A stretch of 59,814 nt of DNA, counting the filler. It is 3 parts of 3 records of this genome, joined end to end, with 100 filler letters (N's around TTAATTAATTAA, not from the genome) between each part and the next. Parts side by side here need not be neighbours in the genome. Positions count along the whole stretch, not along the records: positions 1 to 29,207 come from SRR22947725_2138; 2 more parts are not named here. One strand, given 5' to 3'. The notes beneath the pieces were generated by a model. The model was given only the letters and a program-made list of their open reading frames with translations. It made no database searches and was not told the DNA's origin. The translations under genes and the position numbers were made by a program. This document shows, in pieces, positions 1 through 29,207 of the stretch; positions within the stretch are counted from its first letter, which is position 1; each line of letters opens with the position of its first letter.

Positions 1-3000
1 GTAAGCACCGCTACCTACTGTAAATGACGCATCTTTTCTGTTTACCCAAGGAATCATACCGAGTCCTCTAGCATTAACAGCAGGCATAGTAAGACTGCCG
101 CCATCCATTCGCTTCCAAACTACATGCTCTGGTAAAAAGTTTCTAGCCGCACTTCTTTTACTGTAGTAGCCGAACAATCCGGTATTACCTTGATTGGCAC
201 TCGATGATAGATAATGCGTTGCTCCAGTTATACCTATACATTCAGTTGCATAAGTACCTTGGCTTTCATGGAAACTATTTTGCGAAACAGTACTTTCATC
301 CCAGAATAAATCGCCAGTAGGATATCTACAGGCATTGGCCCTAGCCATATCACCGCTCTGTATAGTACGATGCCATTTGGCGTCGGCTGGTAAAGCATTA
401 CCGGCGGGATAGTCGCCAGCAACAACAGGTACGAATTGACTTTTGTGAATCTGTACTTCTACATGAGGACCAGCAGTAGCAGGTCCAACATATCTGTCTT
501 TGTTGTGAACTTTAGCAGTGTCCCAAGCAATAGTACCGGCGTGGATAGAGTCTCCTACACCCACCATAGTCAGCATGTCACCTGTACAGGTAATACTGTC
601 ACGGTCAGCCTTAGCGACCAATGGTAGTTCACTCTCATGACTAATCACTATTAGGTGTCTACTAGATAACCCACTTACACAAAAGTCAGATACAAATGCA
701 GCCGACAAACCATCACCTGTCACTGGAGCAGGAGAAGAGCCAGCCAAACAAGTTTCAGCAGCGCCGTAAGGATTGAAACCTAAGAAAGGATGCCAAGCAC
801 CTAAACCAGCAGCATAGGTGTTACCAGTTATATCTAGTGAATTGAAGTAAGAATATCTCTCCCCATGCCAGCCGACTGCACCTACTGCTTTAGTTCGGTC
901 TACTGCGTCTACATAACCGCTAAAGTGAACTTGAGTCATATGGTCTCTGGCCGAGTTTCCAGAATCATTGTTATATCTGTGAGTACCTGCTTTAGTCCAA
1001 ACATAAGCCTCGTAAGTCGTACCTCCAGCAAGACTGGTCAGTTGGCTATGGTCATGAGGGTTTCTGAAATTAGTAGAAACTCCTCCAGTAGTATCTGGGT
1101 TTTTACCTAATGTTAGAGTTAAGTTAGGTGCTGAATAAGATGTTGACACATAAGGTGCGTAATAAGCATTAGTTCCGTCACTCAATCTTATCCAGCCATA
1201 TTCGGGTAATTTGTCAAAACTACCATTGATGACTACAGTAGCAGCGCTTTCGCCTTCTTCTTGTGAATAACTTTGAACAGTTGCTGTGACCCAACCATAT
1301 CTGTCTTGCTTGTGAGCATTTTGCATTGAGGGCATAAATGTACCACCCATAGCCTTGAGCGGGTCTTTACCGGGGAATGTATTGATTGAAGCACTAATAA
1401 TAGTAGCCAACTCTTCTGCGTTCTGAACACGAGTTGCATCGACTATGACTATGTTTTCATCAACAGTCTGATTAGTAGGTGTACCACCGTAAAAGCCCAA
1501 GTAAGCATTTGCTAACAAGCCACAAGGTCTGAAAACTGTAGGGTTCTTAGCAGCCCCGCTACCATTAGCGATTCTACCAGCAGTACCAGTAGGATGGTCA
1601 GGGTTTTTACTTACATGGTTATCTAAGAAATGACCACCCGGATGATATCCGCCATCCATGTGCCAAACAGCAGCAGACCGTCTAGTCTTAGGGAAGTTAG
1701 AACCGCCTATCGTATTTGCAGCACCTCCAGCAAGTGCTACAGGGACATGATTAAACGGATGGAAATGCTTGGGTAATACTCTACCAACTACTTGACTTGC
1801 TCCACTACCTTCGTAATAGAAAGCCTTTACATTTGTTTGGTCGTAACTTTTAGTAGCACTAGCATCTTCTGACGGGAAACCTTTGGTAGGTTGCCAGTTC
1901 ATAACATAATTAAACGCAGTCTCGTTGTTTTTCTGGAAGAAAGTAGTCATAGGTAAGTGAGCCAAAGCGCTACCTCTGTTGAAACCGCTATGCTCAGTCA
2001 AATCACCGTTAGCCAGTTGATTTGGTAGGAATGTATCTTTAGTCGCATCGTTGTTGTAATGAATAGGTACTGCGCTGTAACCATTACCTGTTGTAACTAT
2101 ATCAGCACCCTGTGGCTCATGTGCTGCTGTATTGTGAGGGAAAGCCTGACCCGGACCAAATATCATGTAGGTAGTTTGGTTATTTGTATCCCCCGATGAA
2201 CTATATCTAGCGTGAGGATGAGCGAATCTAAGAACTATTGGACTGGGGATGTTTACACTGACTGTGTTTGTGCCGTCAGTGTAATCTATTCCTGTCACTT
2301 TATCGTTAGCACCCTTAGCCATGTCGAAGGTAAGTATAGCATCTTGGTTGAAGAAAGGAGGATGATTTTGACCTTTGTGTTGGTCAAGATAAGGTGTACC
2401 GGGGAACATAGCCAGCATAGCATTGGTATCGAGTAGTGCGTAAGAGCCAGCCACCTCTCCTATATTCTGCATCCCGGCGCTACCTGTCGGGCCAGAAGAA
2501 TAAGGATGGGTATAGAATTCGCCGTAATCGTTTTGCGTACCGTCGTTTATGTCGACAACCGCACCGCTAAATCCACCACCGAAGTAGAGAGGCACCCAGT
2601 GGTCTGGGCTATCTCTACCGCCACGGAAGTAAAGGAATGGACTAGATTGTTTGCTACCTGCTCTTCTAATACCATCTGTTTTGATAGCATCGTAAGTGTC
2701 AGCGTATCCTTTGAAAATTATATCACTAGCCGATGGTGTAGGCCAATTAGAAGAACTAGCGTTGCCTACATAGACGACTCTAGTAACACAGGTTGAGCCG
2801 GGCTCACTTCTTACTGTAGCGTATTTATCAGAACTGTATCTAATCAAGAAAGGCTCACCCCAACTGACTGCATTGTTACATGCAAGTTTACCAAACAAAG
2901 CCCATGTTTGACCGCCTGCTACATCTATGTTAGTAGTTCCATGAGTGGCACTTATTAACGCAGATGGTGAATCAATTCTAGGTATAATCCTATCACCGGC

Positions 3001-6000
3001 TACATCAATGAAGTTTTCACCTCTTAGATTTCTTTGCCAGATTGTAGTATCGACTATGTTGTTTTGGCTATCGACTAGCACAGGGGTAGCCGTATTTGCA
3101 TTCGCTCCTCTATACTTGGTTGTAATTTGAAGTATAGTAGAAGGTATGTAACCAATGTCTAAGCGAGTACCTGCATCCATTTCACTTGTGGATAAACCAC
3201 CAGTGTGTTTACTACTTACCGCAGCATCAGTCGAAGCACCGTCAAGTAAACCGAAGTCTTTGGTTCTGTCTACTTCAAACAACTTACCTAGAGGCGTTTT
3301 GTTGTCAGCCATCGTCTTTATTCTAATAGCGGTAGGGCTGACACCCCAATCACCTAATGTTTTCCCATCGGGAGCGAACATGTGAGTACAGTCAAAACTA
3401 GATGCTTTTACACCTTCTTGCTCAGAGTTTGATGAGTTAATAGCATACTCTACAGCGGCAGCCATTACTTCGTCAGTTAGTAGACAAGTAAAGTTAATTC
3501 TCGGACTGAGTATTAGACCCGGCCCACCGGCTACTATCTCGGTTACATTTGTAACACCGTAGAAAAAATGCTTGTTAGATGTGCCACCGGCTTTAGCGAA
3601 ATGAGAGCGGCTAGTATAGAATGTAGTCATACCTTGGTTTCCGCTAGTTCCATCATCATCGCTTAACTGCAACATACCAGATTCTGGAAAACCAAGATAA
3701 CCTAATATATCTGGATGAGAAAAAGAGCCTACATTATGATAAGGGTCTGTTAGTACAACTTCAAGTGTAGTTCCACTAAGTGTTGCAGTAACATGCACAC
3801 CTACATGTGGACTCGGATAATTGTTCCATAAGTTACCTTTGAAAGGCTGCAAAGTTCCACCAGTCAATTCTCCGCAGACTTCACCTTTACCAACCATATG
3901 CTTACCTATGGTAAATCCACCTTGACCAACATCTCTATCATCAAAATGAATGACAACTTCTTCATCTAATGTAGGTGGTAAGTAGGTATTGTCGTTAGCG
4001 AAACTCTCACCAAACTGTCTGTAAACAAAACGAATGGTATGATTGTCTCCTCTATGGTCAACCATTCTTATGCCATAAAGCGGCGACTTGCCGATATTCT
4101 GCTTTTTCATATCATCTTGGGGTATGTATCCGCCAGTCGTACCAACTGTAGTCACAGTCATTGAATCGGCTGAGTTAGCAGCATTACCGTATTTAGTTCG
4201 GAAATTAGCCTGTGTGCCATCATTATCGTAGCCCCATTTACTTACATCAGGTGCCCAGCCCGGTATACCTGCTTGGGTTAAGCCACCAAAGTTAATTCTG
4301 GCTTTGGCTCTGGTACCCACTCTTAACCCGTCTACTAAGGTAGAGGAAGGGCTCTTAGTTTCAAATGATTCGTTAAGTAAAGTATTGCTATTTCTACCAC
4401 TGACTAATTCTATATTAGCATCGGCTAGTATTCCCGGACCAACTATACCGTCTGCTCCTAGATTGAGATTGTTTATGAATGGGTCACTAGGGTTTTCTGG
4501 AGGTAGGTGCTCTTTGAGTGTAGTAATAGGAGCAAATGGTCTACCGAATCTGTTGATAGGCATAGGGGCCGGGTGCATGTTTTCACCAGTTACCTCGTCA
4601 GGCTGGCACCAGTAATTTCTGAATCTACCACCGTGACCAATAAGGAACTGAGGTCTGTAAGGGCTCTGTGCCTTACTACTGTCTAACCAAGTACAGAAGT
4701 TTCTTCCAGCAGCACCCGGAACTGTTGAATGTATTACTATGGAAAAGCCCGGATTATCTTCTGAATCAAGTACTACTCTTCCTAAATGCGCTCTTACATA
4801 ACCCATGTGAGTACCACGGTCATGACTAGAGAAGGCCTTGCTTGTATCCCAGAATGGAGCAGGGTCGTGAGTAGAGGCGGTTGCTGCAAAGTCAGCATGA
4901 AGATGAGTGGCAGTAGGGTCTGTGTTGCTACTGTAAGCGTTTGATTTAGGACCGGGGCTGGTCAAGTCAAACTTTGAGCCATCGCCTAAGAATTGGTCAT
5001 TCGGTCTACGAGCGTGTGTCTTACCATTTTTGGCACCGGCTTGATTGATTAGCCTAACTACTTCTCTAGCAGCAGACTCTATGTTAGTCACACCGTCTTT
5101 GAGGCGCACTTCTCCTAAATCAACAGTAAGTCTTCTAACGAAGTCCATTTGGTTCCAATGGTTTAGGTACTGTAATCGACTTTCATCGTGAAATGTCAAA
5201 TCAAGAGTGGTGTTTCTTATACCCTTCATAGCCAAGAAAGTAGGTATTACCCTAGTACCGTCAGGTGTATCAAAGAAAGTAGATGATTCTCTACTAGTCG
5301 AGTCTATTATCTGGTGGTCGGTAATTGCATCGCTAGCAGATGCCACTGCTGGATTAGTCCTAACACTGTAACTATCTTTGGCTATATTGCCCAGCCCACC
5401 TACATTGTGTTCGGACAAGCCGCCGGTTACACTTTTATTAACATCAGAAGCATGTGCGTAACTGGCTTCTATAAAGTCTGATTTTTCTGTAGCGAGTAGT
5501 AATTTATTTTGACTAGGGAAACCTGCCGCTACATCTAGTTGAGAACCTAAACCAGTAACTGAATTTACTATAGTACCGGCTGCTGTAGTGGTTACATCTG
5601 AACCTATTTTAGCGGCAGCAGGGCTAGATTGTACTTGCATATGTAAATCTTGGAATGCAATAAATTCACGGTCATGACCTACATCGTACAGCAGTATCCT
5701 AACAAAGTCATCAGTGCACTGGTAAGGGTCTAAGTAAGCAACTACTGGTACAATTGCATCAGTGTTCAAAGCCTCGTAATTTAACACAATTGTTTTATTG
5801 ATATGTTGAACTAGATTCTTAGCAGTTTCTATACAAGTATTACCGATTAAGAAGTTCTCTAAAGGTATGCTATCTCTAGGGTTATTGTTAAGCGTACCTT
5901 GTCCACCATTAAAGCCAGTCCATACTTCTGCTTCGTTTAGCGTTCCCCGACTCTTACAAAACAAACCTTCGATTGCGTGAGGATTAGTATAGTGCATGTT

Positions 6001-9000
6001 CATCCATACAGTATCACCTTGTCTTAGACCGCCGGGGCAATAAGGATGTGCCCAAGCCCTATTGAGGAATGTTTCTAACACTTGAGGATATGTGGTGTTT
6101 CCGGGTATAACATGCAGGTCTTCAACATATATTTCGTCACCTACTGCGGGCGTAAATCCACTATCAGGACTAACAATAGTAAATACATTACCTACCCTGT
6201 TATCGTAAAATCCACGATTGACTGTTCCGCTTCCGTTCCTAAATGCAACTCTAAATTTGTAATTAGCATTAGGAGAACTGATAGGGAACAAACTAGCATC
6301 GTCTAGCGTAAGAGATGTAGCGGGACTTCCAGTTACAGCAACAACTGTTGCTCTAGGTCTTTTGCTGACTACTTTAGGAAGGTGAGGGTTAGTCGAGGGG
6401 CCTGCTTTTAATTCAATAGCACTGACATACTGCTTGAGTCCGTAATCGGTGTTACCACCTTGAGTCATTACATTTGACCTATCATAATAGAATGACCTGC
6501 GATTCTCATAACCTGCACTGATAAGGCTAGGATTATCAGCGATACTGTTGTAATTCATATCTTGATATCCGGGTGCTGGAGTAAGATGTGCGCCTACTTT
6601 GAGGTCACGGAAGAAATTTTCACTGGCTATAAAGTCATCACCATGAGCGCCAGCAACTTCTAAATAATGACTGGTAGTATTTCTTGCATCGTATATTACC
6701 CACTCGCCGTTTGGTAAGAAAGCCCTACGATACCTAGCACCTCCGCTAATACCTGCTACATCTGTAGCCGGTGCAGTAGGTATAGGGAAAATGTTAGCGT
6801 CTTCGACATATATCTTATGTCCACTAGTAGTATAGGGTTGAGTAACTTTAGTACCACTGCGATGTGATTTGTTTTGAATAGAATAAGAAAATGGGCCAAA
6901 TATCTCAGGGTCTTGCGGGGAAATCGAATCTGGTCTTCTACCTACAGGGTTAGGACTCCAAGAATGCGCTGTATGAGTAGCGTCTACATGCAGTTTCATA
7001 CTGTTGTCTGGTCCGGGGAATATACCTTTGTCGGGATTATCAAAGAAGAACTCCTCAAACAAAGGAATCTCAACCAAAGCCCTAGTACTGGCGTATTGCG
7101 TACCTAGTTGGTAGTCGTGCTGAACAGTATCTAAGGATTGAAAAAGTCTATCATTGATAGTAGTTCCATCATTGCACATTGACTCTTCACTAAACTTGTC
7201 GTCTACATGCAGTACACTACCCTTTACTATACCAGTAGCGGTTATCCAATCTGCAAATGTATCTGATTCACTACCGTCTGCTTGTAAGAATTTACCTGTC
7301 CCTAATTGGCTACCCGATGCAAATGTGAACACATCTCCTGTTTTACTAGCGTATTCAGCACTAGCAAACTGAATTTGCTCCCCTTGATTACCGGCTATTT
7401 CTAAGTATATTCTACCTGTTTTAGGGAAACAATATGTACCCCATGACTGTAAATCGGTAGCCTTGTTGTTAAGAGGTAGAACAGTAACAGTGGTAGAAGA
7501 AGTAGCACTGACTGCTGTTTGACAATCTCTTCGAGTGTTCCACGCTAGTCTAGCGAGTGGACTTGGGTCCCATGTTTCCTTGGTGTTAATCGCACCTTGA
7601 CCTGCGCCTCCAAGAGTAATCGCCACTACTGGTGCGCCCGGCATAATCTCTTTGACAATGTGAGAATCTGGACTTGCAGAGCCTTTTACGCTGACAGTAG
7701 AAGATGCAATGTCGCTAAGTAAACCGTGCGCTCTGAGTACCGTGTTACCGTCGCCATCATCTCCAAATGATAACACTCTACCTCTTGACATTAGATGCTC
7801 TACACTTATGTGATTTCTCATCTCTGTATCCTTTACTAGTTTAGACAACTGAGCAAAACGACTTCTGTCGCTAGGTTGTACAACTAGTGTAGTAATGTTG
7901 CTCCTTGATTTATGTTCAATAATGTCAAAGTATTCATGTACAGCAGTGCTTTGATTAGTACTACCTCTACCTGTTGATTGAGGTTCTAAGAACAATTCAT
8001 CTTTAATTACTACGGCATCAGAAGTACCTGCACCTATTGTAACACTGCCAGAAGCAACTGCTGTTACAGTACCTAGACTTTTACCATTGGCTTTGTAAAT
8101 AATGTCGTTAACTGCTATGGTATCGCTCACTGTACCGCCAATTACATTCATGGCACCAGTAGTAGACGCTGAATAGTCTGCACTAAATGTGAGGCCTAAT
8201 CTTTGCCTAGTACCATTGGTGGTTTTTCTTAACTTTACATTTGATATTTCTTCGTAATCAGCAGATTTAACAAAGTGATTACGGATTAGTATTTTATGAA
8301 AAACAGATGACCTAGAAGCCAGTTCAGATTGAGCGACGCTTATCGCTTGAGGAGTAGTTTGAGGAGTGTCAGTACTAGACTGAGGTAAATAATTAGTAGG
8401 GCACAGGCTCAGGTTTAATTGACTTTCTCCTACCAAACCTTCTGAATCATCGCCTTCTAATTGACCGTCGTCGAATGGGAATAAATTAGGAGTCTTGAAA
8501 GATAATACTCCTCCCGGAGAAACAACAGTCAAAGGTTTAGTATTAGCCGATGTCCTCATCAAGTCAAGAATACTAGTGGTACCTGTCACTATAGTACTAA
8601 CATCTGGTAAGGTTTTACTGACTAGTAATTTAGGAGAGTTGTCAATCATTTTTACTATTGCGTTATTAACTGCTGAGTTGTTAAAAGCGCTGTTATTAGG
8701 TGTCGCAGAGAAAACTATAGTCTTAGCAGCATGGTTTACTTTAGCAGTTTGGTTGGTAAAAGAAGTAAATGGTTTATGTCCATCTATTGATATTTTACTA
8801 GCAGGTACCGTCAATCCGTCTACGCCAAAACACTTGATACTCTGTAGAGTCAGTGTCGCTGTTGATATATTAGCAGTAAGCCTAGATGTGGCACTTACAT
8901 CAAAATGGTCGCCAGTTCTATCTACTGCATTATAATGAATTTGTACAAACGGTGCATAGTCATATGTTTCTAATTCTGGGAGTACGAGCGTAGCGATTCT

Positions 9001-10767: not shown

Positions 10768-10768
10768 A

Positions 10769-12769: not shown

Positions 12770-12778
12770 ATTTTCACC

Positions 12779-15313
12779 TCACATTATTATATCTGCTGCT
12801 ATGAACTTAAGACTGAATTCATACGCTTTCATTTCTGCTTCTCTATGAGTAACAAAGTCTGTTACTATACCGCTTATGCCATTTTTAAAATGACCTTCTG
12901 CTGTATTCGAAAACAAACGAGAAGCGTGTATGTTGTTAACAGAAGACAACTTATCACTAGTGTTACCTTCTGTGGTTAAGAAAAAGTTTCTTTGGGCAAC
13001 CTCGGTATCTAAGTTAGACTTACCTTTGGTAGCCAAAGAGTTGTAGGGTATCTGTATACCCCTTATGTAGTCACCCTGTGCATCTGGGCTGTTGTAAAAA
13101 GTATCTTGGACAAAACCACTCGCTACATCTATGACCTTAGCAATTCTGTTACTTGGTACGAAGTTAAGGAAGTTATTGCTGTTAGATAATATACCAATCA
13201 AATCCTGCGCTTTGTCTCCACCGCTCTTTACTCGCTTACCTGATTTACCCCCAGTAAACCCATCTATGATAGGTGCTTGCCCGACACCCAAATTAGTATT
13301 TATTTTGTCAGATAGTTTACCCAAAGATGTAGCGTGACTTTGGGTAATGGTTAATCTTGAATTGTGACCGCTAGAAGATTGCGATATTGCTGTGGTAAAC
13401 GCTTTGTCCAGCGTTAGATTACCTGCTGTATTAACTTGCTTACCTAGAGTAATGTAATTACTAGTTATCGCTTTGGAAAATAAATAAGTGATGTATTCGT
13501 CTGTTCTTGTCAGACTACCGCCGCTATCTCTAGTAGAGCCGTTTTGATGGGAAGGAAATTCAGGGCCGACTGCTTTTTCTGGAAGAGCCGACTCTTCAAA
13601 GGTATCAGCATTCTTAACTGGTATAATCAAAACTGGAGATAAATCGTTGCCGTTTAAACCGGAAGCATCTCCGTAATCAAAAGGCTCTATCCAAACTTGG
13701 TCTCCAGTAGCGTGAGTTGCACCGCCTTGCGACAAGTTAACTGTTATTTGACTAGAGGTAACAGCAGTAACTGTGCCAAAGTATTCTTGCGAACCGCTAG
13801 TTTTACGGTAACTTGCAGCACTATCGTTTTCTTTGAATACTATCCTCATGTTTCGGTTGTTTTCTGTAAGTTCAAACCACTCTCTTGGGTCTCCACCGGT
13901 AACAGGTAAAACAGCAGCACCTGATGATATAGAGTCCAATACCATGTTAGTCTTTCTTCTTTGATTTAAGAAACCATGCGGCTCCTTAACAGAACCAACT
14001 AATTCTTTGTCAAACCCTACTCTTAGGTGCTTATGGTCGTAGGAATATTGCGCTAAACCTTCGTATTTACCTTCTAACAAATGCAGCCCATATTTCCTAG
14101 CAAGATAACCTTCTATCTGATTTCTCTCGTCTGTAGTAACTGCTTTGTTGTAAATTAAAATCTCTTGTACAGCGCCATCTAAACTAGTGCTGGTATCGTG
14201 ACCTATGTACAGAGTACCACTAGTAGCAGGGGTGTAATCTACACCTGATGTTTTACTACCTACTTCTTCTCCACGAGAATATATCTTAACAGTATCTGCT
14301 TGGGCGTTACCGGTAGTGTCATCCATAGTGTAGCATATTAGTTGAGTGCTGTAACTTCTACTACTACCAGTACTAGACGCTTGTGTATCAGCAGAGCCAG
14401 ATTCATCCCAACCTGCTACTACTCTTGTATTACCTTGGTCAAAGGATAAAGAATAACCATTACTAGCAGTTTTCAAAATAGGCCGAACACCTGTTGAAAA
14501 GTTTCTAGCAATGACGAATATCGAAAACTCCTCGGAGTTGAGGAAAGCCGTGTAAGGTATATCTAGCCTATCAGTGCTGTTAAATACAACTTCTGCTAAT
14601 CCTCCGGTAGATGCAATTCTATGAAACGGTCTTAGTCCGGCAGTAGACTGAGTAGCGTGTCTGCCGTTACCGCTTGCATCATTCCATGTTTCGACAGTTG
14701 TATTTTCGTTACCAACTATATTTTCAGGCTTTAGCCATAACTGTAAACCAGTCTTCACAGGATTGTCCAGAGCAGTTGCTTCTTCTACCCAGTAAGCCAA
14801 AGGTAAATCTATGTACCTTTTACTCCAATGTTGTAATATACGATTCCCTAAATCTCCAGAAGATGTAGGGTGGCCACCTAGACCTCCACCAAAGCCTCCG
14901 CCAAATCCACCAGAAAAGCCGCCTCCGCTACCTAAACCAGTGCTACCTATAGCAGATACTCCCATGGCACCTTGAGTGTTAAACGCAGATGGCATCAGAC
15001 CGCCTGTCATACCTCCACCACCACCACTGTCAGGTCTAGGTGTAAACAGTTGTTGAGGCTGATAAAAGTCAATCAAGGCAGTTGCACTACTGGTTTCCTC
15101 TTGACCTACATCATCCGCTAGCACTCCTTGCACTTCTACTGCGACTGCGGCTTGGTTCAAATCTATACCTAACTTTTTAGCATCGAAGAAAGGAATTCCA
15201 AAATTACTGATTTGTCTTTCTACTACTATGTCTATACTTGTAGCATCCAGAGAGATAGTTTCACCGTTCTCTTGAACTAAGCGAACAGGCATTTTCTCTC
15301 CGGCGTCTACCAA
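12779..15313 (-). CDS. Distal-tail (Dit)-like structural protein with Gly-rich linker and LamG/ConA-like domain, paralog 1
   Basis: 844 aa; LQLWLKPE...WNDASGNGRHATQ...FSIFVIAR...LYIG...VQEILIYNKAV...IEGYLARKYGL is a LamG-type signature; immediately follows the TMP-like gene. Confidence 0.6.
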   Translation of the reverse strand: MVDAGEKMPVRLVQENGETISLDATSIDIVVERQISNFGIPFFDAKKLGIDLNQAAVAVEVQGVLADDVGQEETSSATALIDFYQPQQLFTPRPDSGGGGGMTGGLMPSAFNTQGAMGVSAIGSTGLGSGGGFSGGFGGGFGGGLGGHPTSSGDLGNRILQHWSKRYIDLPLAYWVEEATALDNPVKTGLQLWLKPENIVGNENTTVETWNDASGNGRHATQSTAGLRPFHRIASTGGLAEVVFNSTDRLDIPYTAFLNSEEFSIFVIARNFSTGVRPILKTASNGYSLSFDQGNTRVVAGWDESGSADTQASSTGSSRSYSTQLICYTMDDTTGNAQADTVKIYSRGEEVGSKTSGVDYTPATSGTLYIGHDTSTSLDGAVQEILIYNKAVTTDERNQIEGYLARKYGLHLLEGKYEGLAQYSYDHKHLRVGFDKELVGSVKEPHGFLNQRRKTNMVLDSISSGAAVLPVTGGDPREWFELTENNRNMRIVFKENDSAASYRKTSGSQEYFGTVTAVTSSQITVNLSQGGATHATGDQVWIEPFDYGDASGLNGNDLSPVLIIPVKNADTFEESALPEKAVGPEFPSHQNGSTRDSGGSLTRTDEYITYLFSKAITSNYITLGKQVNTAGNLTLDKAFTTAISQSSSGHNSRLTITQSHATSLGKLSDKINTNLGVGQAPIIDGFTGGKSGKRVKSGGDKAQDLIGILSNSNNFLNFVPSNRIAKVIDVASGFVQDTFYNSPDAQGDYIRGIQIPYNSLATKGKSNLDTEVAQRNFFLTTEGNTSDKLSSVNNIHASRLFSNTAEGHFKNGISGIVTDFVTHREAEMKAYEFSLKFIAADIIM

Positions 15314-15315
15314 GG

Positions 15316-16475: not shown

Positions 16476-16484
16476 AGTATCTCC

Positions 16485-21257: not shown

Positions 21258-21301
21258 CTACTCTCCCCCTAACTAAGCCATGACACGATACATCATTAAA
21301 T

Positions 21302-21586
21302 CTACTGTTCTTTTACTCCTAAATTGAAGTCCATTTGTTTGCCACAAGTTCTGCACTTATCGACCCAGCAGAAGTAAAGCATTCCACAACCTTTGCATCG
21401 TGTACCGCTACCGATGTTCAGTACATCGCCAGCGTTCTTGTTACGATTGCGCTGTTTAATTGTCACGCCTTCTAAGGGCTTTTCGTCGTTGGTCTTTACA
21501 GAGCCGCCGTAAGATTCATTGAGTCGAATACCACGCTTTTGTAAACGCTTAATGTCATCGAGTCCTAGACTGCCGAATGCATCCAT
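21302..21586 (-). CDS. Small zinc-ribbon protein
   Basis: 94 aa; CKGC-x9-CRTC near the C-terminus. Confidence 0.75.
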   Translation of the reverse strand: MDAFGSLGLDDIKRLQKRGIRLNESYGGSVKTNDEKPLEGVTIKQRNRNKNAGDVLNIGSGTRCKGCGMLYFCWVDKCRTCGKQMDFNLGVKEQ

Positions 21587-21596
21587 CTAATCAGCC

Positions 21597-21788
21597 TCAC
21601 AAGAAGGTGATTAATATGTAATAATTACCCAAGACTAACATTGGGTCAGAAGCCACCAAACTAGATGTTGTTAACCCAGTAAGTGTACCTACATCGCTTT
21701 CTATCTTAGCAAGTAATGTAGCAGAGTCTGTGAATTCTTGAGGAGCATAAGGTCCTACCAACTTAAACTTAGGTTCTAGTGTTGCCAT
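21597..21788 (-). CDS. Small hypothetical virion protein
   Basis: 63 aa, in operon orientation with short spacers. Confidence 0.7.
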   Translation of the reverse strand: MATLEPKFKLVGPYAPQEFTDSATLLAKIESDVGTLTGLTTSSLVASDPMLVLGNYYILITFL

Positions 21789-21796
21789 ATCAATAC

Positions 21797-21847
21797 CTAC
21801 TTAGAACCTATTATTAGAAACTTCGCTATTTCGTAAAAGCCAGTCAA
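21797..21847 (-). CDS. 16-aa mini-ORF (MTGFYEIAKFLIIGSK) or gene remnant
   Basis: TTG start 5 nt after GGCGGTGA RBS; fills the 75-nt intergenic gap; TAG stop at 21797-21799. Confidence 0.45.
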   Translation of the reverse strand: MTGFYEIAKFLIIGSK

Positions 21848-21863
21848 TTAAGTCACCGCCTAA

Positions 21864-22400
21864 TCAGCGTTGACCTAGAATCCACCAGCGGCCTGCTTGG
21901 CCGGTACTGACACTGGTTGCACCAAGATTACCATTACCAAATATTACTCTACTATTAGTTTCGTCAATACTTACTGAAAGATTTCCATCAGTCAAAGTTA
22001 CTGCACCAGTGTTTGGTCCGTGTTTAAACAAACTTTTGTTATTGGGGTTTGCTACTAACGAACCTGCTTCTAGTGTAATTTGAGTAGCACTATCTACCGA
22101 AAGAATTCTTCCCATCCTTTCTCTAACAGCATTGTAAAGGTCTTCACCTCTATTAAAATGAATTCTTGCGTCTACAGTATCTACAGTTATTACTGTATCT
22201 CCAATTTCAACACCGTCTGGTGTATCATCAATTTTAATGCCGGTATCATATGCAGATGTTACATGCCCACCTGCTGCAAGAACAGTTGATAATACTCCAT
22301 CAAATGATACAGAAGTACCACCGTCAGTAAAAGTTCCTGTAAGCATGAGCATATCGCCCATTACATGTGTTCTTGTGTCTGCTGTGTGTGATGCTACCAT
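21864..22400 (-). CDS. Hypothetical structural protein with inserted beta-barrel module
   Basis: 178 aa, G/T/S-rich beta composition; FNRGEDLYN...GRILSVDSATQITL module. Confidence 0.7.
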   Translation of the reverse strand: MVASHTADTRTHVMGDMLMLTGTFTDGGTSVSFDGVLSTVLAAGGHVTSAYDTGIKIDDTPDGVEIGDTVITVDTVDARIHFNRGEDLYNAVRERMGRILSVDSATQITLEAGSLVANPNNKSLFKHGPNTGAVTLTDGNLSVSIDETNSRVIFGNGNLGATSVSTGQAGRWWILGQR

Positions 22401-22849
22401 TATTCTTCAACTCCGCTTGTCTCTACGAGTGAGTCCTCGGTTATAGTATCTTCTACTACTTCTTCTGCTACAGGCTCAGGAGCGACCTCCTCAACCACTG
22501 GCTCTGGTGCCGGTGGATTGAGTGTGGTCTTTACCTTATCCAAGAGTTTTGCTTTAGTAGCATACCCTGTGATAGATACTCCTTTGTCTTTTAACCAACC
22601 TGTGATATCTTTCTTAGTCCAACCTGAGTCGGGTAATCCATCACCATCAGCGTCTTCTGTAAAGCCTATTCCTGCTGTAGTCTTGGCATCGCCTTTGACT
22701 ACAAACGCTTCTGGGTTAGTACAGATAGCAGTACGGTTAGCATCTAGCCATTCTTGAGAGACTTCTTGAGGTACTCTCTTAGGCCAGATACTCTTTGTAC
22801 CCGGTACTTTTCTATAGGCGTAGTTACCTATGTATGTAACTGTAGGCAA
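22400..22849 (-). CDS. Hypothetical protein with HeH/Rho-N-like helical motif and acidic tail
   Basis: 149 aa; WTKKDITGWLKDKGV...ATKAKLLDKV; GGTGA RBS before TTG. Confidence 0.65.
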   Translation of the reverse strand: MPTVTYIGNYAYRKVPGTKSIWPKRVPQEVSQEWLDANRTAICTNPEAFVVKGDAKTTAGIGFTEDADGDGLPDSGWTKKDITGWLKDKGVSITGYATKAKLLDKVKTTLNPPAPEPVVEEVAPEPVAEEVVEDTITEDSLVETSGVEE

Positions 22850-22860
22850 GATTACTCACC

Positions 22861-23298
22861 TCAAGCGAGTAATAGCCAAAGTTCAGTCGCTGATACATCT
22901 GCTGCACTGTCATCGTGTTGCTTCAAATCAAAAGTCAATACTAAATCGCTTGTTTTAGTAATACCCATGATTGCAGTTGCGTCTACATGTGAACCTATAA
23001 CTGATACGATTTTGCTAACTTCTCCTGAAAGAGTAAGTGTGTTACCATCTGCCAATGATGAATTTAACGAAAGACAAACTAATCTTGGGTTTCTCTTACC
23101 TATGTTAGTTGTATCGTCATTGGTTGCTTGGAAGCCAGTAAGTGCTCCGGGGTATGTACCCGCTGCTGCACCTGCACCGCTTAACCAACCAGTTTCATCT
23201 TGGTCTACTCCACCTTGAAGTCCCAAATCTGAGTTTACAGTTGTTATGTAAGTCCCAGTTCCTGTATATGTTATTCCTCTATGTGTTGTTGCTGCCAT
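22861..23298 (-). CDS. Putative capsid decoration/minor head protein
   Basis: 145 aa directly after the MCP; strong AAGGAG RBS; T/G/A-rich. Confidence 0.55.
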   Translation of the reverse strand: MAATTHRGITYTGTGTYITTVNSDLGLQGGVDQDETGWLSGAGAAAGTYPGALTGFQATNDDTTNIGKRNPRLVCLSLNSSLADGNTLTLSGEVSKIVSVIGSHVDATAIMGITKTSDLVLTFDLKQHDDSAADVSATELWLLLA

Positions 23299-23337
23299 AT
23301 TTAATCATCTCCTTAATATTTTATTCTCCATTAATCC

Positions 23338-24471
23338 TCACTTCAAGTCACGGATAGAACCTTGACCTCCAAAGAAAGTTGTCCATACTTCACCCATTGT
23401 GCGGTAAAGTCCCTCTTGACCGAGGCGGTTAATGGCGAATGGGTCTCCAGTTTCAATTCCAGACTCAAAGTATTGAGTTGGTTTTGCAGTACTAAAGTAT
23501 AGGTAGTCAGTGTCCAGCATGTAAATTCTGCTGATAGCGTCACTAGCCATCTCTTTAGTTGGAATGATTGGTACACCGTTGTAAGTTGCTACGATGAAAC
23601 CTGCTTCCATACCCGGAACACCTTTTACACCGTTAAATGTTGGTACTACTCTCTTCTCTTCCATGAACCTTTGTTGGCTTTGTAGAAGTTGTTGAATTCT
23701 CATCAATGTATCATATCCAGTTAGCATAACCTTTGGATTTCCACCACGAGTCCAAACAAGTCTGAAAATTTCATCCAAGTGGTCAAGTGATAGAGTTCTG
23801 TTAGTAGAACCGCTGTCAGCAGAATCCTCAGCATATGACCAAGAGTTGGCTGCTACATTTCTGTCGATTGAGTAAATGTCTTCGTCGCCAGTATCGTAGT
23901 GAGTACCGGAAGTCATTGAGTTAACACCAGTGGTGATTCTGTCAAGTGATTCAAAGTCATTTCCTGCTACAGTTGTTACATCCTCAGTTAGCATATCGTT
24001 GATGTGCTCTGCGTGATGCTTACCCATTTCTTCTTTCAAGACTGAACGAATGTCACCTAGACCGTCGTCTTTGTCGTTTAGGAAGATTGCTGTCTCAGAC
24101 ATGTCGAATGAGTGAGCAATAGTTTTAGGCTTTGCTGCAACATTTTGGAAGGTAGGTTTGGTTGTGTCTGGTAGTGTACCGTTCTCTGCAATTCCGCCAC
24201 CAACAGTCTTGGAAGGCTTAGCAGTAACTACTCTCCATCCACTTCTGTCCCATGGTTTCTTTGGTAGAATTGAAAATGCGTTGAATTCTTGGTTTAGTTG
24301 TGACCAAACTTTTCTACCGTAGATTGCTTGGTATGTTCCTGCTGTTGTGCTTAACAATGGTGCATCAGCCTTCAATAGTTCTGAACCAGAGTATGAATAT
24401 CCCATACTTTGACCAGTACCGTAGTAGTAGCGCTCCATGTCGTTGATTGTTCTCATGTAATTTCTTGCCAT
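23338..24471 (-). CDS. Major capsid protein (HK97 fold)
   Basis: 377 aa after protease/scaffold; YGRKVWSQLN, LPKKPWDRSGWRV, FESLDRI, ATYNGVPIIP, GLYRTMGE; AAGGAG RBS. Confidence 0.9.
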   Translation of the reverse strand: MARNYMRTINDMERYYYGTGQSMGYSYSGSELLKADAPLLSTTAGTYQAIYGRKVWSQLNQEFNAFSILPKKPWDRSGWRVVTAKPSKTVGGGIAENGTLPDTTKPTFQNVAAKPKTIAHSFDMSETAIFLNDKDDGLGDIRSVLKEEMGKHHAEHINDMLTEDVTTVAGNDFESLDRITTGVNSMTSGTHYDTGDEDIYSIDRNVAANSWSYAEDSADSGSTNRTLSLDHLDEIFRLVWTRGGNPKVMLTGYDTLMRIQQLLQSQQRFMEEKRVVPTFNGVKGVPGMEAGFIVATYNGVPIIPTKEMASDAISRIYMLDTDYLYFSTAKPTQYFESGIETGDPFAINRLGQEGLYRTMGEVWTTFFGGQGSIRDLK

Positions 24472-24505
24472 ATATATCTCTCCTTAATTTTGTTTATCCT
24501 CTATT

Positions 24506-25360
24506 TCAGTTGTTGAAAACACTCCCAGCGAGGTTGTGTACCTCTGACCAGTCCATGCTTGCCATGTCCATTGTCGAAGGGACTTCGATAGTGGAAAGTT
24601 GTTTTCTGATTGTTGCTGCTTCTGCTGAGTTAGATGAACTGCTAATGTTATCAATTCTACCGCTCAAGTCAGATAGAGCCTTTTCGATGTTAGCAAGTGG
24701 TGTTCTTGCATCAAAGGAAGCGGCTTCTCTTGCTTGCGCTTCTGAAGTAAGTTCTTTGCTTAGTCTGTCAGAAAATACAATTCCTAAATTGGATTTGAAT
24801 TGTTCTTCAAGAGATGCTGCTTTGTAAACTTCATATGCTGCTTCAAGGTCAGTTGCGGAAACTCCACTTGGGTGTAAGTATCCTTTTGCTACTGCGCCGC
24901 TTCCGCCGCTGTTGACTTTACCGATAGCGTTAGTAGATGGTGAACCACCTTCTTGTGCTCTTCCTTTAACTTGTCCAGCGAAGTAATCTGCACCGTCGCC
25001 AATTGATTCTGGTGTACTACCTAGATTCTGCTTTGCTATACTATCAAAGTGACCTCTTGCGCCCATTATATCAACGCCTGCTGATTTAAGGGTGTTTTCC
25101 ATCCAGTTCAGATAGTCAGTAGTAATGACATCGGAATATCCTTTTGCCATATCTGCATCTTCTTTGTGCTCAGCACCGTACATTTTCTTATCTTCGTCTT
25201 CGGTCATTTCTTCAGCCTCGTCTTTTTTGGGTTTCTTCTCTTGAGATTCTTCAAGAGCCCTCTTTGCTGCGTCTGGCATTTCGCCTTTTTCCATAGCATC
25301 GAGTCTTCCGTTCAGTCTATCTAGTGTGCTTGACAATTCGCCTAATACATTATCGTTCAT
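24506..25360 (-). CDS. Putative nested in-frame scaffold protein (internal start Met180)
   Basis: AAGGAGG 8 nt upstream of an in-frame ATG at 25360, exactly at the protease/scaffold boundary. Confidence 0.6.
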   Translation of the reverse strand: MNDNVLGELSSTLDRLNGRLDAMEKGEMPDAAKRALEESQEKKPKKDEAEEMTEDEDKKMYGAEHKEDADMAKGYSDVITTDYLNWMENTLKSAGVDIMGARGHFDSIAKQNLGSTPESIGDGADYFAGQVKGRAQEGGSPSTNAIGKVNSGGSGAVAKGYLHPSGVSATDLEAAYEVYKAASLEEQFKSNLGIVFSDRLSKELTSEAQAREAASFDARTPLANIEKALSDLSGRIDNISSSSNSAEAATIRKQLSTIEVPSTMDMASMDWSEVHNLAGSVFNN

Positions 25361-25897
25361 ATTTGTGTCCTCCTTCAATATACGGAATGTCGCCTCCGGG
25401 TTAATACCTTTTTCGCAAATAGTAACCTCATGAAGTTCTAGTTTGGAGATTTCTGTATAGTCACCGTGTTTTTGGTCACTCTTTCGCATTCTCTTGAATG
25501 CTTGTCCTCCAATACTGAAACCTCTAAGGGCACCTTTGCGAATTTCTTTGGCAACTTCTCTTGCCTTTTCTATGTCGTCTCGTAGTTTAATGACTACGAA
25601 CATACCAGCATCATCAACGCCGGATTTCCAAACTCTACCGTTAGAGTCAGTGTAAGATGGTATTACGCTTCCTACTTGTATGTTAGAGTGAGCGAGTTGT
25701 ACATTTCGGAAACCGTCTGCTTTCATAAAGTCGTCAAACGCATTACCTAAAGCGCCTCTAGTAATCAAGTCACCTTGCTTGTCTACCATCTCTACAGATG
25801 CGTATCCAGCAATCACTAGGTCGCTGTCAGCCTTCAAAATACTAATACTTCCGCCGTGGTTAACGGGGGAAGTTCTCAGTGATGCAGATGCTGCCAT
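24506..25897 (-). CDS. HK97-family prohead protease fused to a scaffold domain
   Basis: IAGYASVEMVDKQGD, LAHSNIQVG (His), GFSIGG (Ser), LHEVTICEKGINPEATF; charged helical C-terminal half. Confidence 0.9.
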   Translation of the reverse strand: MAASASLRTSPVNHGGSISILKADSDLVIAGYASVEMVDKQGDLITRGALGNAFDDFMKADGFRNVQLAHSNIQVGSVIPSYTDSNGRVWKSGVDDAGMFVVIKLRDDIEKAREVAKEIRKGALRGFSIGGQAFKRMRKSDQKHGDYTEISKLELHEVTICEKGINPEATFRILKEDTNMNDNVLGELSSTLDRLNGRLDAMEKGEMPDAAKRALEESQEKKPKKDEAEEMTEDEDKKMYGAEHKEDADMAKGYSDVITTDYLNWMENTLKSAGVDIMGARGHFDSIAKQNLGSTPESIGDGADYFAGQVKGRAQEGGSPSTNAIGKVNSGGSGAVAKGYLHPSGVSATDLEAAYEVYKAASLEEQFKSNLGIVFSDRLSKELTSEAQAREAASFDARTPLANIEKALSDLSGRIDNISSSSNSAEAATIRKQLSTIEVPSTMDMASMDWSEVHNLAGSVFNN

Positions 25898-25920
25898 TGC
25901 TTCTATAGACTATGCTCATA

Positions 25921-25928
25921 CTATTTAA
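25921..25928 (-). promoter_or_regulatory. Archaeal TATA-box-like element (TTAAATAG) for the head operon, probably leaderless mRNA
   Basis: About 24-31 nt upstream of the protease ATG, which has no Shine-Dalgarno sequence. Confidence 0.5.
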
Positions 25929-28900
25929 TCAAGTATGGAAGACAGCCTTATCTGAATCTATCTCTAGTACACCTTCTGATACAGGTATGACCAAATGCTT
26001 TTTGTCCTCTTGGTCTTCTGTTTCTGGTTCTATAGAGGAGTCTTCTCCGGGGCGTTTTTTGTTGTCATAGTCAGGCAATGTCTTCTCGTCGTGAAGATTA
26101 GTCGGACCCATAGGTGATTCTATAGGAGTAGCGTAGTCGATACCTAATCCCATAGCACCAGTACTAGACTGTCCTACTGAACCTACCCCGCTCTTGAGTA
26201 ACTTCTCGATAAGTAAAAGACCCTTTACTAGTACTTTATCTCGCTCTTGGTTAACTGTCCACTTGGTTTCTTTTATTTTCTTAGGAGTAATTAGCGGTTT
26301 ACCATCACCCTTTGATTCGTGAACTTCGGCTTTATCTTCTTGCTCAGGCTCTTTAATATCTAAATTAGCCTTGAGTAAAGCACCTGCTATCGGCCCCCAG
26401 TATGCTCTTTGACTTTCAGACAACCTAATCAAATAATTATTAGATGATAAAGGACTATGTAAAGACCAGTTGCCAAGTGATTCTGTTGCTTTGTAAACTA
26501 CATCGCCTTGTGGCATGACCACTCTTATTCCGCTCTTTGCTCTATGTACTTCACATAGCCATTGTGAATCAAGAGACTTTGCTAGTAGACCGAGTGTTTC
26601 TCGGCTAACCAGACCTTCACCTTCTGCTTCACCTATGATATCTGAACCGGTTAATGTGTAAACATACTCGTCTTGTATAGACTCTACTTTAGTGACATTA
26701 GCCGCATTAACTCTAACATGGTCACCTTCGTTGTATTTATCTGTACTGTTAAATGCAACCCCTACTTCCATGTAAGTTTCTTCGCCCGACTCAACTGCTC
26801 GATTACCTATACTCTCTGCTTGAGTAATTGGACCAGTACCTAATCTGTAAGTATAAGGCCCGTTACCTCTTCTTTCCAATACTCTCAAGACTACATCTTT
26901 ACCGGGCTTGAGCATAACCCACTTAGGATGGCGGAGTTCACCCGCCATGTAAGTTGACTTTGCATCTCTTAGTAGTAGAGATTCATGTTCTTTCTGTAAA
27001 TCTTCAACTGCTAGTTTAAGACCAGCGTCGTCTGTAAGTCTAGTATCACTAGCGCTTGGAAGATGTATATTCTCAATACCTTCCATGCCTCCTCTTAGTA
27101 TCTTTATCCTATCATCAATAGTTACTTCGTGAACTTCTTTATCGTCAAACTCTAAGACATCAAAGATATAGTACCCTTCTTCTGTCTTAATCACATCTAT
27201 ATGGTAATTTTCGTCAGCAACTTTCTTGAAATTTTTCTCATCATCATCTGATAAATCAAATGTAGGCGATGTCACTTTATCATCATCTTTCTTGACAAAG
27301 CCTCTCTCACCTTCTGGCATAACAGATACCATCCAGTCGCCTGTAAAACCACGCAGGTGTTCGAGGTCATCAAGTTCAAAGATGCGATGCATAGGCTGTA
27401 AAGTAGGGACTTTGGGCCCTAGGTCTTTTCTGATAATGTCAGGATTAGTTAAATCAGCCAAGCCTATTTCTGATTTGTAAGTGGCTTTTGGGTCTTGGTT
27501 TCTTGAATAGGACACAGAATCTTGTACAAACTGAGCCCCCATCTTAGATGCTTCGTTTAATTTCTCCCTTGATTCTTGATGCTCAGGAGAATTAAGTTTA
27601 TCCAACCATTCAGGTGGCGCTATATCTTTCCAGAAAGAATAAAGCAAAGGCACTAACCTTTGCTTGTTACCATCAGGAGTAAGAGTAATCTTAGGAGTGC
27701 CGTCTGAGGATAAAGTATAATTGAAGTTTGGCTTCATTTCATGACCAAACTCATGTTTGAAACCTCCCGAATTGTAAATGCTATGCACAGTACTACTGTC
27801 GTGTCCAGTCGGCCCTACCTTGACACGACCTAAACCTCTAACTGTTTCAGTCGTACTTTGCGGTGCTTCCACTTCTGGGAAACTAGTAACCAAAGAGTTT
27901 AGGGTTTGCATTACTCTGTGTTTAACATCTTCAAATCTAGCATCTTTTTTCTTTGCACTTCCAAAACTAGAACGCCCTGTATGTAAGTCTTCATCAAATC
28001 TATCATCTAAATTATGTGCAAGTTGGAAACCTATACCAGCCTGCTTACTTCTTTCATCCGAACCTTTACGACCTAAAACTGCATATATCTGTTCTACTTT
28101 TCTAGCAAACTCTTTAACATCTGGTTTACCTCTTCTTTTATTATTATCCAAATCTGCAAGCATAGCGTCAATATCTATATCTGGATACTTCTGACTAATC
28201 AACTGTCGACCTGACATGACCGGTGGTATCGGTTTACCTTCGTTTAATCTAGGAAGTACGGTGTTGTCGATGTAATCTTTCATGGTCTGCCTTAATCTAT
28301 CATCAGATGTATCTAAGCCAAGTGAATTCATAAATGAGTTCTCAAACTCAATTCTCTTGTTTTCTGCATCTTTAACAAAAGGTTCGTATTTACTGGGGTT
28401 TTCTTGATATGGCTGGCTGTCTAATATCTGATTTATTCTAAAACTCTGATTAAAATAATCTTCTATAGCGTCTTCTGGTACACTAAACCCTGACGAAGAA
28501 ACCGAAGTTTTCAAATCAGCAGAAAAGTCATCAGTCTTTACAGACCTGCCAGTTACATCTGTATCTGTATTACCAACAGTGTGTATGTCGTGAGCATCAG
28601 AAGGAGCCCTGTGCAAATAGTCATTAGACATCTGTGCCCACATTCGCATGTTAGCAGCGATGGTTTGAAAATCAGCATTAGGGTTAAAGATTTCAGCAAG
28701 TAGTGACTGACCTTCTGGCGTTTGCATCATGTCTTGTTTTAACTTAATACCCGCTTCTGTTATGGCGTTAGTATCACTTCGCAAAACATTCTGCAAAGTA
28801 TTGTAATGACCGTCACCTCCGAAAGTTCTATCTTCGACTTTCTCTTTTCTTTCCCAATCTTTTGCCTTCCTTCTTAATTCTTCGAGTTCTTCACTCTTAG

Positions 28901-29207
28901 CAGGTTTCAACTGAGGCGGTAAATCAGGAAATTCATTTTCTAAAGATTCGATTTGTGTAAGTAATCCTTCATAATAATCAGACTCTTGCTCTAAACTATC
29001 TGGTCTATCAGTTACGGATAACTGACGGCTCAATGAGGCTACTGGATTTAATTCTCTTCCTGCATAACCAGCCATACCTATATCTTCTTCATTTTCATTT
29101 TCCAAATTGAATTGATGCTGTGCAAGGTTATTTTCGAGTCTATCAAGCATTCTTTGTTTACCAGCAGGTAATTCTTTCAACTCTTGCATCAAATTGGTTT
29201 TTTCAAA
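25929..29207 (-). CDS. Large protein (over 1090 aa, 5'-truncated) containing a degenerate ATP-dependent DNA ligase-like adenylation + OB module
   Basis: Frame open to the contig edge. WMVSVMPEGER (motif I position), YYIFDVL (IIIa), ESLLLRDAKSTY..G..RHPKWVMLKP (IV/V). Lysines of motifs I and V read as Met. Confidence 0.8.
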   Translation of the reverse strand, partial: FEKTNLMQELKELPAGKQRMLDRLENNLAQHQFNLENENEEDIGMAGYAGRELNPVASLSRQLSVTDRPDSLEQESDYYEGLLTQIESLENEFPDLPPQLKPAKSEELEELRRKAKDWERKEKVEDRTFGGDGHYNTLQNVLRSDTNAITEAGIKLKQDMMQTPEGQSLLAEIFNPNADFQTIAANMRMWAQMSNDYLHRAPSDAHDIHTVGNTDTDVTGRSVKTDDFSADLKTSVSSSGFSVPEDAIEDYFNQSFRINQILDSQPYQENPSKYEPFVKDAENKRIEFENSFMNSLGLDTSDDRLRQTMKDYIDNTVLPRLNEGKPIPPVMSGRQLISQKYPDIDIDAMLADLDNNKRRGKPDVKEFARKVEQIYAVLGRKGSDERSKQAGIGFQLAHNLDDRFDEDLHTGRSSFGSAKKKDARFEDVKHRVMQTLNSLVTSFPEVEAPQSTTETVRGLGRVKVGPTGHDSSTVHSIYNSGGFKHEFGHEMKPNFNYTLSSDGTPKITLTPDGNKQRLVPLLYSFWKDIAPPEWLDKLNSPEHQESREKLNEASKMGAQFVQDSVSYSRNQDPKATYKSEIGLADLTNPDIIRKDLGPKVPTLQPMHRIFELDDLEHLRGFTGDWMVSVMPEGERGFVKKDDDKVTSPTFDLSDDDEKNFKKVADENYHIDVIKTEEGYYIFDVLEFDDKEVHEVTIDDRIKILRGGMEGIENIHLPSASDTRLTDDAGLKLAVEDLQKEHESLLLRDAKSTYMAGELRHPKWVMLKPGKDVVLRVLERRGNGPYTYRLGTGPITQAESIGNRAVESGEETYMEVGVAFNSTDKYNEGDHVRVNAANVTKVESIQDEYVYTLTGSDIIGEAEGEGLVSRETLGLLAKSLDSQWLCEVHRAKSGIRVVMPQGDVVYKATESLGNWSLHSPLSSNNYLIRLSESQRAYWGPIAGALLKANLDIKEPEQEDKAEVHESKGDGKPLITPKKIKETKWTVNQERDKVLVKGLLLIEKLLKSGVGSVGQSSTGAMGLGIDYATPIESPMGPTNLHDEKTLPDYDNKKRPGEDSSIEPETEDQEDKKHLVIPVSEGVLEIDSDKAVFHT

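Follow-up and report, generated by a model that had tools for sequence, protein, structure and literature searches.

Why should a long piece of viral DNA contain not one copy of several very short words? The question is raised by contig 1 of the window, by which we mean the whole stretch of 59,814 nucleotides that was analysed, an artificial end-to-end concatenation of three unrelated contigs. Contig 1 (positions 1-29207, record SRR22947725_2138) is viral, with a G+C content (GC) of 0.419 and all its genes on the minus strand, and is predicted from its sequence to be the structural module of a group-A-like magrovirus (order Magrovirales), a kind of tailed virus associated with the Marine Group II (MGII) archaea (Poseidoniales). 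These archaea are abundant and uncultured, and to our knowledge their antiviral defences have not been studied by experiment. An initial annotation of the contig had described GATC, AGCT and CCWGG as absent from it and had read this as a trace of host restriction-modification.

Missing words and codon choice in contig 1

We counted words in contig 1 against base composition, against Markov nulls, and against 500 synonymous-codon shuffles within genes, which preserve every protein and the codon usage of each gene. The three words are indeed absent. GATC occurs 0 times, against 107 expected from base composition and 68.4 ± 6.0 in the shuffles (minimum 51); AGCT occurs 0 times, against 107 and 122.1 ± 9.2 (minimum 97); and CCWGG occurs 0 times, against 32 and 36.5 ± 4.1 (minimum 23). 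The earlier estimate of about 100 GATC and 100 AGCT from composition was thus accurate, but the set of three was too small, since at least five words are absent and two had been overlooked: ACGT (0 copies, with 107 expected from base composition and 65.7 ± 6.1 in the shuffles, minimum 51) and CGCG (0 copies, with 56 and 20.9 ± 4.1, minimum 11). For each of the five words, a zero count was reached by none of the 500 shuffles. The Markov nulls, which the initial annotation had proposed alongside a codon-aware one, agree in placing all five far below expectation. GATC, AGCT, ACGT and CGCG are the only tetranucleotides among the 256 with a zero count in contig 1. Other palindromes are at their normal level in the shuffle null, with 90 CATG against 92, 129 GTAC against 130, and 142 CTAG against 122 ± 8, the last of which had rightly been called abundant. 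Also as described earlier, GATC and AGCT are common in contigs 2 and 3 (116 and 26 copies of GATC, 74 and 54 of AGCT), which are bacterial and serve as controls for ordinary DNA, not for host DNA.

Several longer words are missing or nearly so. In the shuffle null for contig 1, CGTCC/GGACG is found 0 times against 20.7 ± 3.9, CTGAAG/CTTCAG twice against 23.1 ± 4.2, and TCTAGA, TTGCAA, and CTGCAG 0 times against 9.6, 10.4, and 10.7, respectively. Adding nine close relatives to contig 1 gives 109 kb of sequence that is related and not independent, in which observed and expected counts are 0/65 for CGTCC/GGACG, 9/88 for CTGAAG/CTTCAG, 0/43 for TCTAGA, 4/47 for TTGCAA, and 0/30 for CTGCAG. For CTTAAG, GCATGC, TGCGCA, ATCGAT, and TTCGAA, the expectation is too low to call avoidance from the window alone. 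CCSGG is enriched in contig 1, with 33 copies against 12.5 in the shuffles.

Could such gaps arise with no selection on the sites at all, by mutational or codon bias, by chance, or as an artefact of assembly or library preparation? CG-containing words are somewhat rare overall in contig 1, where CpG stands at 0.70 of expectation. However, TCGA and CCGG are present in 54 and 65 copies although both contain CG, and between 21 and 122 copies of each missing word are expected once codons and proteins are kept constant. The codons themselves speak against it as well, because the switch between synonyms is complete and depends on context. Proline before glycine is written CCC or CCG in 29 of 29 cases, while elsewhere it is CCT or CCA in 332 of 397, which bears out the Pro-Gly rule of the initial annotation; the three examples quoted for it read on the coding strand, here the minus strand, at 23611, 20716, and 7012. 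For aspartate, all 60 codons that precede a C-initial codon are GAC. The commonest alanine codon, GCT (310 of 537 Ala codons), is used in 0 of 193 cases after a codon ending in A. Finally, the codons for tyrosine, histidine, asparagine, and aspartate end in T in all 95 cases before valine and in about half elsewhere. Since these context-bound switches are complete, the word absences arise by context-dependent synonymous choice.

Substitutions between relatives spare the same words. Of the 87621 single substitutions possible in contig 1, 5875 (6.7%) would give rise to one of the five words. A related locus in the IMG/VR database, L002, differs from the window at 2002 of 12739 aligned positions. 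When these real differences are placed in the window they create 3 forbidden words, against 95.7 ± 9.6 when the same number and spectrum of changes is placed at random positions; even these 3 are an artefact of ignoring gaps in the hybrid, because both real sequences have none. The differences of four further loci (L001, L003, L007, and L021) create 0, 1, 2, and 0 forbidden words, against 11.8, 29.4, 36.9, and 26.8 expected. These findings show that the target of selection is the DNA word, not the protein, and that it works by synonymous choice and by purifying selection against substitutions that create a site. Real substitutions that create 0 to 3 forbidden words where 12 to 96 are expected, taken together with the shuffles and the codon switches, contradict an origin without selection, which we regard as extremely improbable.

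The same words in relatives and in Poseidoniales DNA

How general the avoidance is was assessed in 80 IMG/VR loci, the best 80 of at least 600 matches to the capsid protein of contig 1, with which their capsid proteins share 79-99% identity. CCWGG is absent from 80 of the 80, AGCT from 79 (L037 has 2 copies), and GATC from 70, L077 being an example of a GATC-positive relative. We then scored the window and the 80 loci together (81 rows), using only rows with at least 10 expected copies and calling a word avoided at 5% of expectation or less. By this measure AGCT is avoided in 80 of 80 rows and CCWGG in 61 of 61, with a minimum of 0 changes on the capsid tree for either word, and GATC in 70 of 80, with 2 changes. 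The other words flip repeatedly between absent and normal: ACGT is avoided in 43 of 80 rows (minimum of 10 changes), CGCG in 49 of 72 (9 changes), CTAG in 26 of 80 (7 changes), TCGA in 10 of 80 (4 changes), and GTAC in 5 of 80 (3 changes). GGCC, CCGG, GCGC, TGCA, CATG, AATT, TTAA, and ATAT are never avoided in these relatives, and TATA in only 2 of 80. Loci of 8 kb or longer, 55 in number, show 22 distinct eight-word patterns, which are not independent events because many loci are close relatives. Not one of the eight words occurs in the 18.6 kb of L085, a more distant relative, for which the expectation is about 69 copies of each tetramer and 23 of CCWGG. The avoidance therefore differs from lineage to lineage within the family, and in a manner that bias or artefact would not produce: relatives of equal GC differ in the words they lack, and the same absences are found in contigs from dozens of independent metagenomes. 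The same pattern is also found again in distant capsid clades of similar GC.

Larger relatives extend the list of words. G002, a genome of 91.9 kb that is 89% complete and has a capsid protein 94% identical to that of contig 1, lacks the same five short words; its observed and expected counts are 1/207 for CCAGA/TCTGG, 1/90 for GCTCC/GGAGC, 0/75 for TGACCA, and 18/212 for GGCC. In G003 they are 0/189 for CCTGA/TCAGG, 0/153 for CCAGA, 0/376 for TCGA, and 3/376 for CTAG. In sister clades CCAGA/TCTGG is avoided and CTGAAG is not. The asymmetric CCAGA/TCTGG is purged on both strands in G002 to G004 (L087-L100; 1/207, 0/153, and 1/142), and G003 is without any CCWGR, its lack of CCWGG being combined with that of asymmetric 5-mers. 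Neither CCAGA/TCTGG nor CCTGA/TCAGG is purged in the window, which has 71 and 45 copies.

Host DNA was sampled starting from a cellular marine thermosome protein, P0314, whose cluster has a member on a 312-kb contig and which led to 35 marine loci at 57-97% identity. Word statistics were computed on 31 loci (390,280 bases, GC 0.38-0.44) against a maximal-order Markov expectation. The DnaK of one locus, L139, exactly matches a protein that NCBI names '[Candidatus Poseidoniales archaeon]', and proteins that cluster with its KatG and HMG-CoA synthase carry the NCBI names Poseidoniaceae, Poseidoniales, or Thermoplasmatota. A plain search for thermosome homologues had been rejected as a route to the host, the 120 best matches all lying on contigs of 110 kb or less and being judged viral copies.

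The 31 loci contain 719 GATC, 690 AGCT, 550 ACGT, 352 CGCG, and 299 CCWGG. Since host loci keep these words, their absence in the virus is not a shared compositional feature. The initial annotation had held that finding the same depletion in the host chromosome, explained by mutational bias, would count against its reading. Absence is not shared, with hundreds of copies kept, but depletion is, and it is strongest for two of the words in question: of the 256 tetramers, GATC is the most depleted (observed/expected 0.35, rank 1), followed by AGCT (0.55, rank 2), while GTAC (0.66) and CGCG (0.67) rank 4 and 5. CCWGG, a 5-mer and hence unranked, stands at 0.60, with CCSGG at 0.96. ACGT (0.96, rank 92), CTAG (1.08, rank 178), and TCGA (1.11, rank 203) are not depleted. 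In the 11 host loci examined singly, GATC (0.30-0.44) and AGCT (0.35-0.64) are low in all 11, while GTAC (0.32-0.82) and CGCG (0.38-1.18) vary. The words that are steady and those that vary in the hosts thus parallel the universal and variable words of the viruses. Low counts of several words in host DNA of similar GC might seem to favour an explanation without selection, were it not for the hundreds of copies kept there. Virus and Poseidoniales loci have similar GC (about 0.42) and share depleted words, which is consistent with the host assignment and is not proof of it.

Two further observations were made on marine loci of this sample. L141, a contig whose thermosome is 57% identical to the Poseidoniales one, is an outlier with 1 CTAG against 82 expected (and CTAG at 0.06 in the per-locus statistics) and 189 TCGA against 82, and may represent a host lineage matching the CTAG-avoiding virus clades. 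A 303-residue open reading frame (ORF) at L139:6132-7043 has weak kinase matches to BREX PglW and MADS6 (E ~1e-6, far below the family cut-offs) and is probably a plain protein kinase.

Candidate agents of selection

We consider it likely that the sites of contig 1 were purged under host restriction, and the restriction-modification reading of the initial annotation is supported by the synonymous choice, the substitutions that spare the words, the combinatorial variation, the host depletion, and published methylomes. Host restriction endonucleases, mainly of Type II, would recognise GATC, AGCT, ACGT, CGCG, and CCWGG, with TCTAGA, CTGCAG, and TTGCAA as probable further recognition words and the asymmetric CGTCC/GGACG and CTGAAG also purged. 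Known enzyme families for words of the main set are MboI/DpnII, AluI, EcoRII/PspGI/MvaI, MaeII, and FnuDII/ThaI. Incoming unmethylated virus DNA without such sites would escape cutting. The purge would have been made by context-dependent synonymous codons and would be kept by purifying selection against substitutions that restore a site. Different virus lineages would purge different combinations, mirroring the restriction repertoires of host populations. We infer, then, that host restriction enzymes are the selective agent. As for methyltransferases of the virus that could protect sites instead, by Pfam there is none among the 17 ORFs of the window, which is a genome fragment, and C5 and N4/N6 methyltransferases (PF00145, PF01555) are found in 0 of four large relatives. 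A D12-class N6-adenine methyltransferase is encoded by one of these four, G002 (L090:3182-3961), and its target must be another word than GATC because GATC is absent from that genome (0 copies); it has only one other close copy in IMG/VR, in L110, at 83% identity.

The methylomes agree in part. In archaeal metagenome-assembled genomes (MAGs), GATC is modified at 19-99%, CGCG and GTAC are modified in MAGs of Euryarchaeota, and AGCT is modified weakly (2-19%) across Poseidoniia (Hiraoka 2022). CGCG, GGTAG, and TCGCGA are methylated in MGIIA (Seong 2022). Detection of m5C by SMRT (single-molecule, real-time) sequencing is poor (Hiraoka 2022).

Several points weigh against host restriction. ACGT is absent from the virus and is not depleted in the host by the Markov measure (0.96, against 0.38 from base composition), while GTAC, depleted in host loci, is at its expected level in this virus (129 against 130). 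All 31 host loci are related variants of a single syntenic region and do not count as independent regions, and the assignment of magroviruses to Poseidoniales itself rests on published inference. The link to restriction is drawn from sources other than host endonuclease or cognate methyltransferase genes. Most methyltransferases in marine MAGs are orphans, and only four methyltransferase/endonuclease pairs with the same motif were predicted (Hiraoka 2022). CCWGG modification in Poseidoniales is not among the motifs found in the accessible portions of the methylome papers.

One alternative would place the nucleases in the virus. Magroviruses would degrade host DNA with site-specific nucleases of their own, and would have purged the target words from their genomes for want of a matching methyltransferase. 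A conserved viral gene would predict what is seen for the core set, since AGCT, CCWGG, and mostly GATC are avoided in essentially all 80 relatives, and depletion of the same words in the host could follow viral nuclease attack. Relatives do encode PD-(D/E)XK and ERCC4 nucleases as well as many ORFs that belong to no family, and the profile of a related family from the international virus-taxonomy committee (ICTV) mentions 'restriction enzyme-like nucleases'. On the other hand, no Pfam restriction-endonuclease family was found among the 82 ORFs of G002 and the 76 of G003, two records that are ~90% complete, in a scan that left many ORFs without any match. On the capsid tree the variable words switch state 3 to 10 times, with the same combinations recurring in distant clades. 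The published methylation of GATC, CGCG, GTAC, and AGCT in the hosts is also what host restriction-modification predicts. On this balance, self-protection against viral nucleases seems unlikely to us.

A second alternative keeps the host as the agent but without classical restriction: the virus would avoid the words of orphan methyltransferases, escaping methylation-dependent nucleases of the next host or interference with viral replication or expression. The prevalence of orphans among marine methyltransferases and the wide methylation of GATC in archaeal MAGs would suit it (Hiraoka 2022), as would a report (Rusinov et al. 2018, PMC6286503) in which GATC avoidance is tied to a methyl-dependent Type IIM enzyme. 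It leaves the depletion of the same words in the host chromosome unexplained, however, and words purged on both strands while being asymmetric (CCAGA/TCTGG, 1/207 in G002) fit nucleases that cut unmodified DNA. Furthermore, both near-complete relatives encode the anti-restriction protein ArdA (L089:4432-4965 in G002 and L093:11548-12117 in G003; Pfam 1e-18 and 5e-21), whose presence in viruses of archaea is in keeping with protection from Type I systems in addition to a purge of Type II sites. We judge this alternative improbable, to the same degree as the previous one.

If host restriction is the agent, candidate restriction specificities of Poseidoniales can be read from those words purged in the virus for which depletion in host DNA is also greatest, and the combinatorial patterns could help to assign magrovirus lineages to host clades. 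A broader and more tentative proposal, which we hold possible but would not favour, is that magroviruses carry lineage-specific 'avoidance barcodes' of 5 to more than 10 fully purged words, among them asymmetric 5-mers removed from both strands, that mirror a graded depletion in Poseidoniales chromosomes. Were it true, and did the barcodes correspond to what each host clade restricts, specificities could be read and viruses paired with hosts without culture, and restriction at AGCT, CCWGG, and GATC would be of ancient origin in Poseidoniales, the dominant planktonic archaea of the ocean, and shared across the order.

Genes of the virus and comparison with known systems

The capsid gene of contig 1 encodes an HK97-type major capsid protein of 377 residues (23338..24471, minus strand; Pfam SU10_MCP 2e-10; PHROG 24667 major head protein 1e-55) that is 99% identical to its counterpart in L001 and 31-33.5% identical, over 99% of the protein, to those of the haloviruses HVTV-1, HCTV-1, and HCTV-5. 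It is followed in coordinate order by a prohead maturation protease of 463 residues (24506..25897, minus strand; Peptidase_S78 1.9e-10; head maturation protease PHROGs) and, upstream of the protease gene, by a large ORF of 1087 residues (25929..29192, minus strand) with a weak match to an ATP-dependent DNA-ligase domain (PF01068, 3.4e-6). Counterparts of this ORF have 1929 residues in G002 (L087:13022-18811), with a similarly weak ligase-domain match (9e-4), and ~1943 in G003 (L095:552-6383). The ORF is probably cut by the contig end, because its G002 homologue has 1929 residues. Contig 1 also encodes a virion structural protein of 844 residues with a Laminin_G_3/concanavalin-like domain (12779..15313, minus strand; Pfam 7e-10; phrog_10356 1e-16) and a giant ORF of at least 3592 residues that runs off the contig end (1..10776, minus strand), has no Pfam or PHROG match, and is likewise free of all avoided words. 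The homologous position in G002 is occupied by a 2194-residue ORF at the end of a record (L091:5213-11797).

The likeness to group A is judged through G002 and not by direct comparison with a named reference magrovirus genome. G002 encodes PolB, a thermosome subunit, a SNF2 helicase, RFC-like ATPases, and a terminase, features described for group A magroviruses (Philosof 2017) and for MGII virus clade 1 (Nishimura 2017). The first three, which belong to the replicative module of group A (Philosof 2017), are not on the window fragment. Magroviruses are homologous to haloviruses (Philosof 2017), and MGII archaea were inferred to be their hosts, without proof (Philosof 2017; Nishimura 2017). A capsid-protein scan of a species-genome collection found only magrovirus contigs inside bacterial MAGs, L084 and L085 in a Parvibaculum MAG and L086 in a Flavobacteriaceae MAG. 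The archaeal ribosomal protein L15e was not found in these MAGs, and the contigs look like binning errors.

The window itself is a mixture. Two artificial linkers, each composed of 44 N, TTAATTAATTAA, and 44 N, separate its contigs at 29208-29307 and 48363-48462. Contig 2 (GC 0.52) codes for alphaproteobacterial AddA/AddB, ribosomal protein S1, TrpB, and AroA, and contig 3 (GC 0.28) is 100% identical to a contig of G001, a 1.3-Mb genome of a low-GC small-genome organism; both are therefore from unrelated bacteria and were rejected as host controls. The combination of an archaeal virus, an alphaproteobacterium, and a low-GC small-genome organism suggests a contaminated bin.

Restriction-site avoidance is a textbook phenomenon, so what is described here takes a known principle to a new and extreme instance without adding a mechanism. 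We found no description of site avoidance in magroviruses, including in the main texts, supplements being outside the search, of Philosof 2017, Nishimura 2017, and a 2025 paper on Poseidoniales viruses. The magrovirus instance appears to be undescribed and unusually extensive.

As the initial annotation had stated, palindrome avoidance is known in haloviruses. Haloarchaeal tailed viruses without Dam lack GATC (Liu et al. 2021, PMC8651126), which was read as a way to evade the restriction-modification of the host, and contig 1 resembles them as part of an archaeal Caudoviricetes genome that lacks restriction-type palindromes. HVTV-1, the closest cultured relative by capsid (33.5%), has 0 GATC where its first 50 kb would be expected to contain 182, and almost no CTAG (11/182), while AGCT (75/182) and CCWGG (117/154) are kept. 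The core of AGCT and CCWGG is therefore specific to the marine lineage. Unlike in haloviruses, five words are absent here, and up to eight short and many longer words are absent in relatives. In haloviruses, presence of Dam goes with presence of the motif (PMC8651126); this rule does not extend to the magroviruses, as G002 shows with its D12 methyltransferase gene and 0 GATC.

Poseidoniales loci, which are 1.5- to 3-fold depleted in GATC, AGCT, GTAC, CGCG, and CCWGG, resemble prokaryotic chromosomes in this respect, which reportedly avoid their own restriction-modification sites (a finding ascribed to Rusinov and colleagues in 2015). A depletion as moderate as this one would be expected of cells with such systems. 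Unlike in annotated cases of self-avoidance, the link in Poseidoniales comes from word statistics and published methylomes.

Among phages (Rusinov et al. 2018, PMC6286503), avoidance concerns the sites of orthodox Type II systems, with essentially none for Types I, IIG, and III, and is strongest in non-temperate double-stranded DNA viruses; roughly one viral genome in ten shows complete or near-complete elimination. Contig 1 is like those phages in that it lacks mainly Type II palindromes and in the near-total elimination. Unlike them, magrovirus relatives purge asymmetric 5-mers on both strands, and the virus of contig 1 is itself without CGTCC/GGACG.

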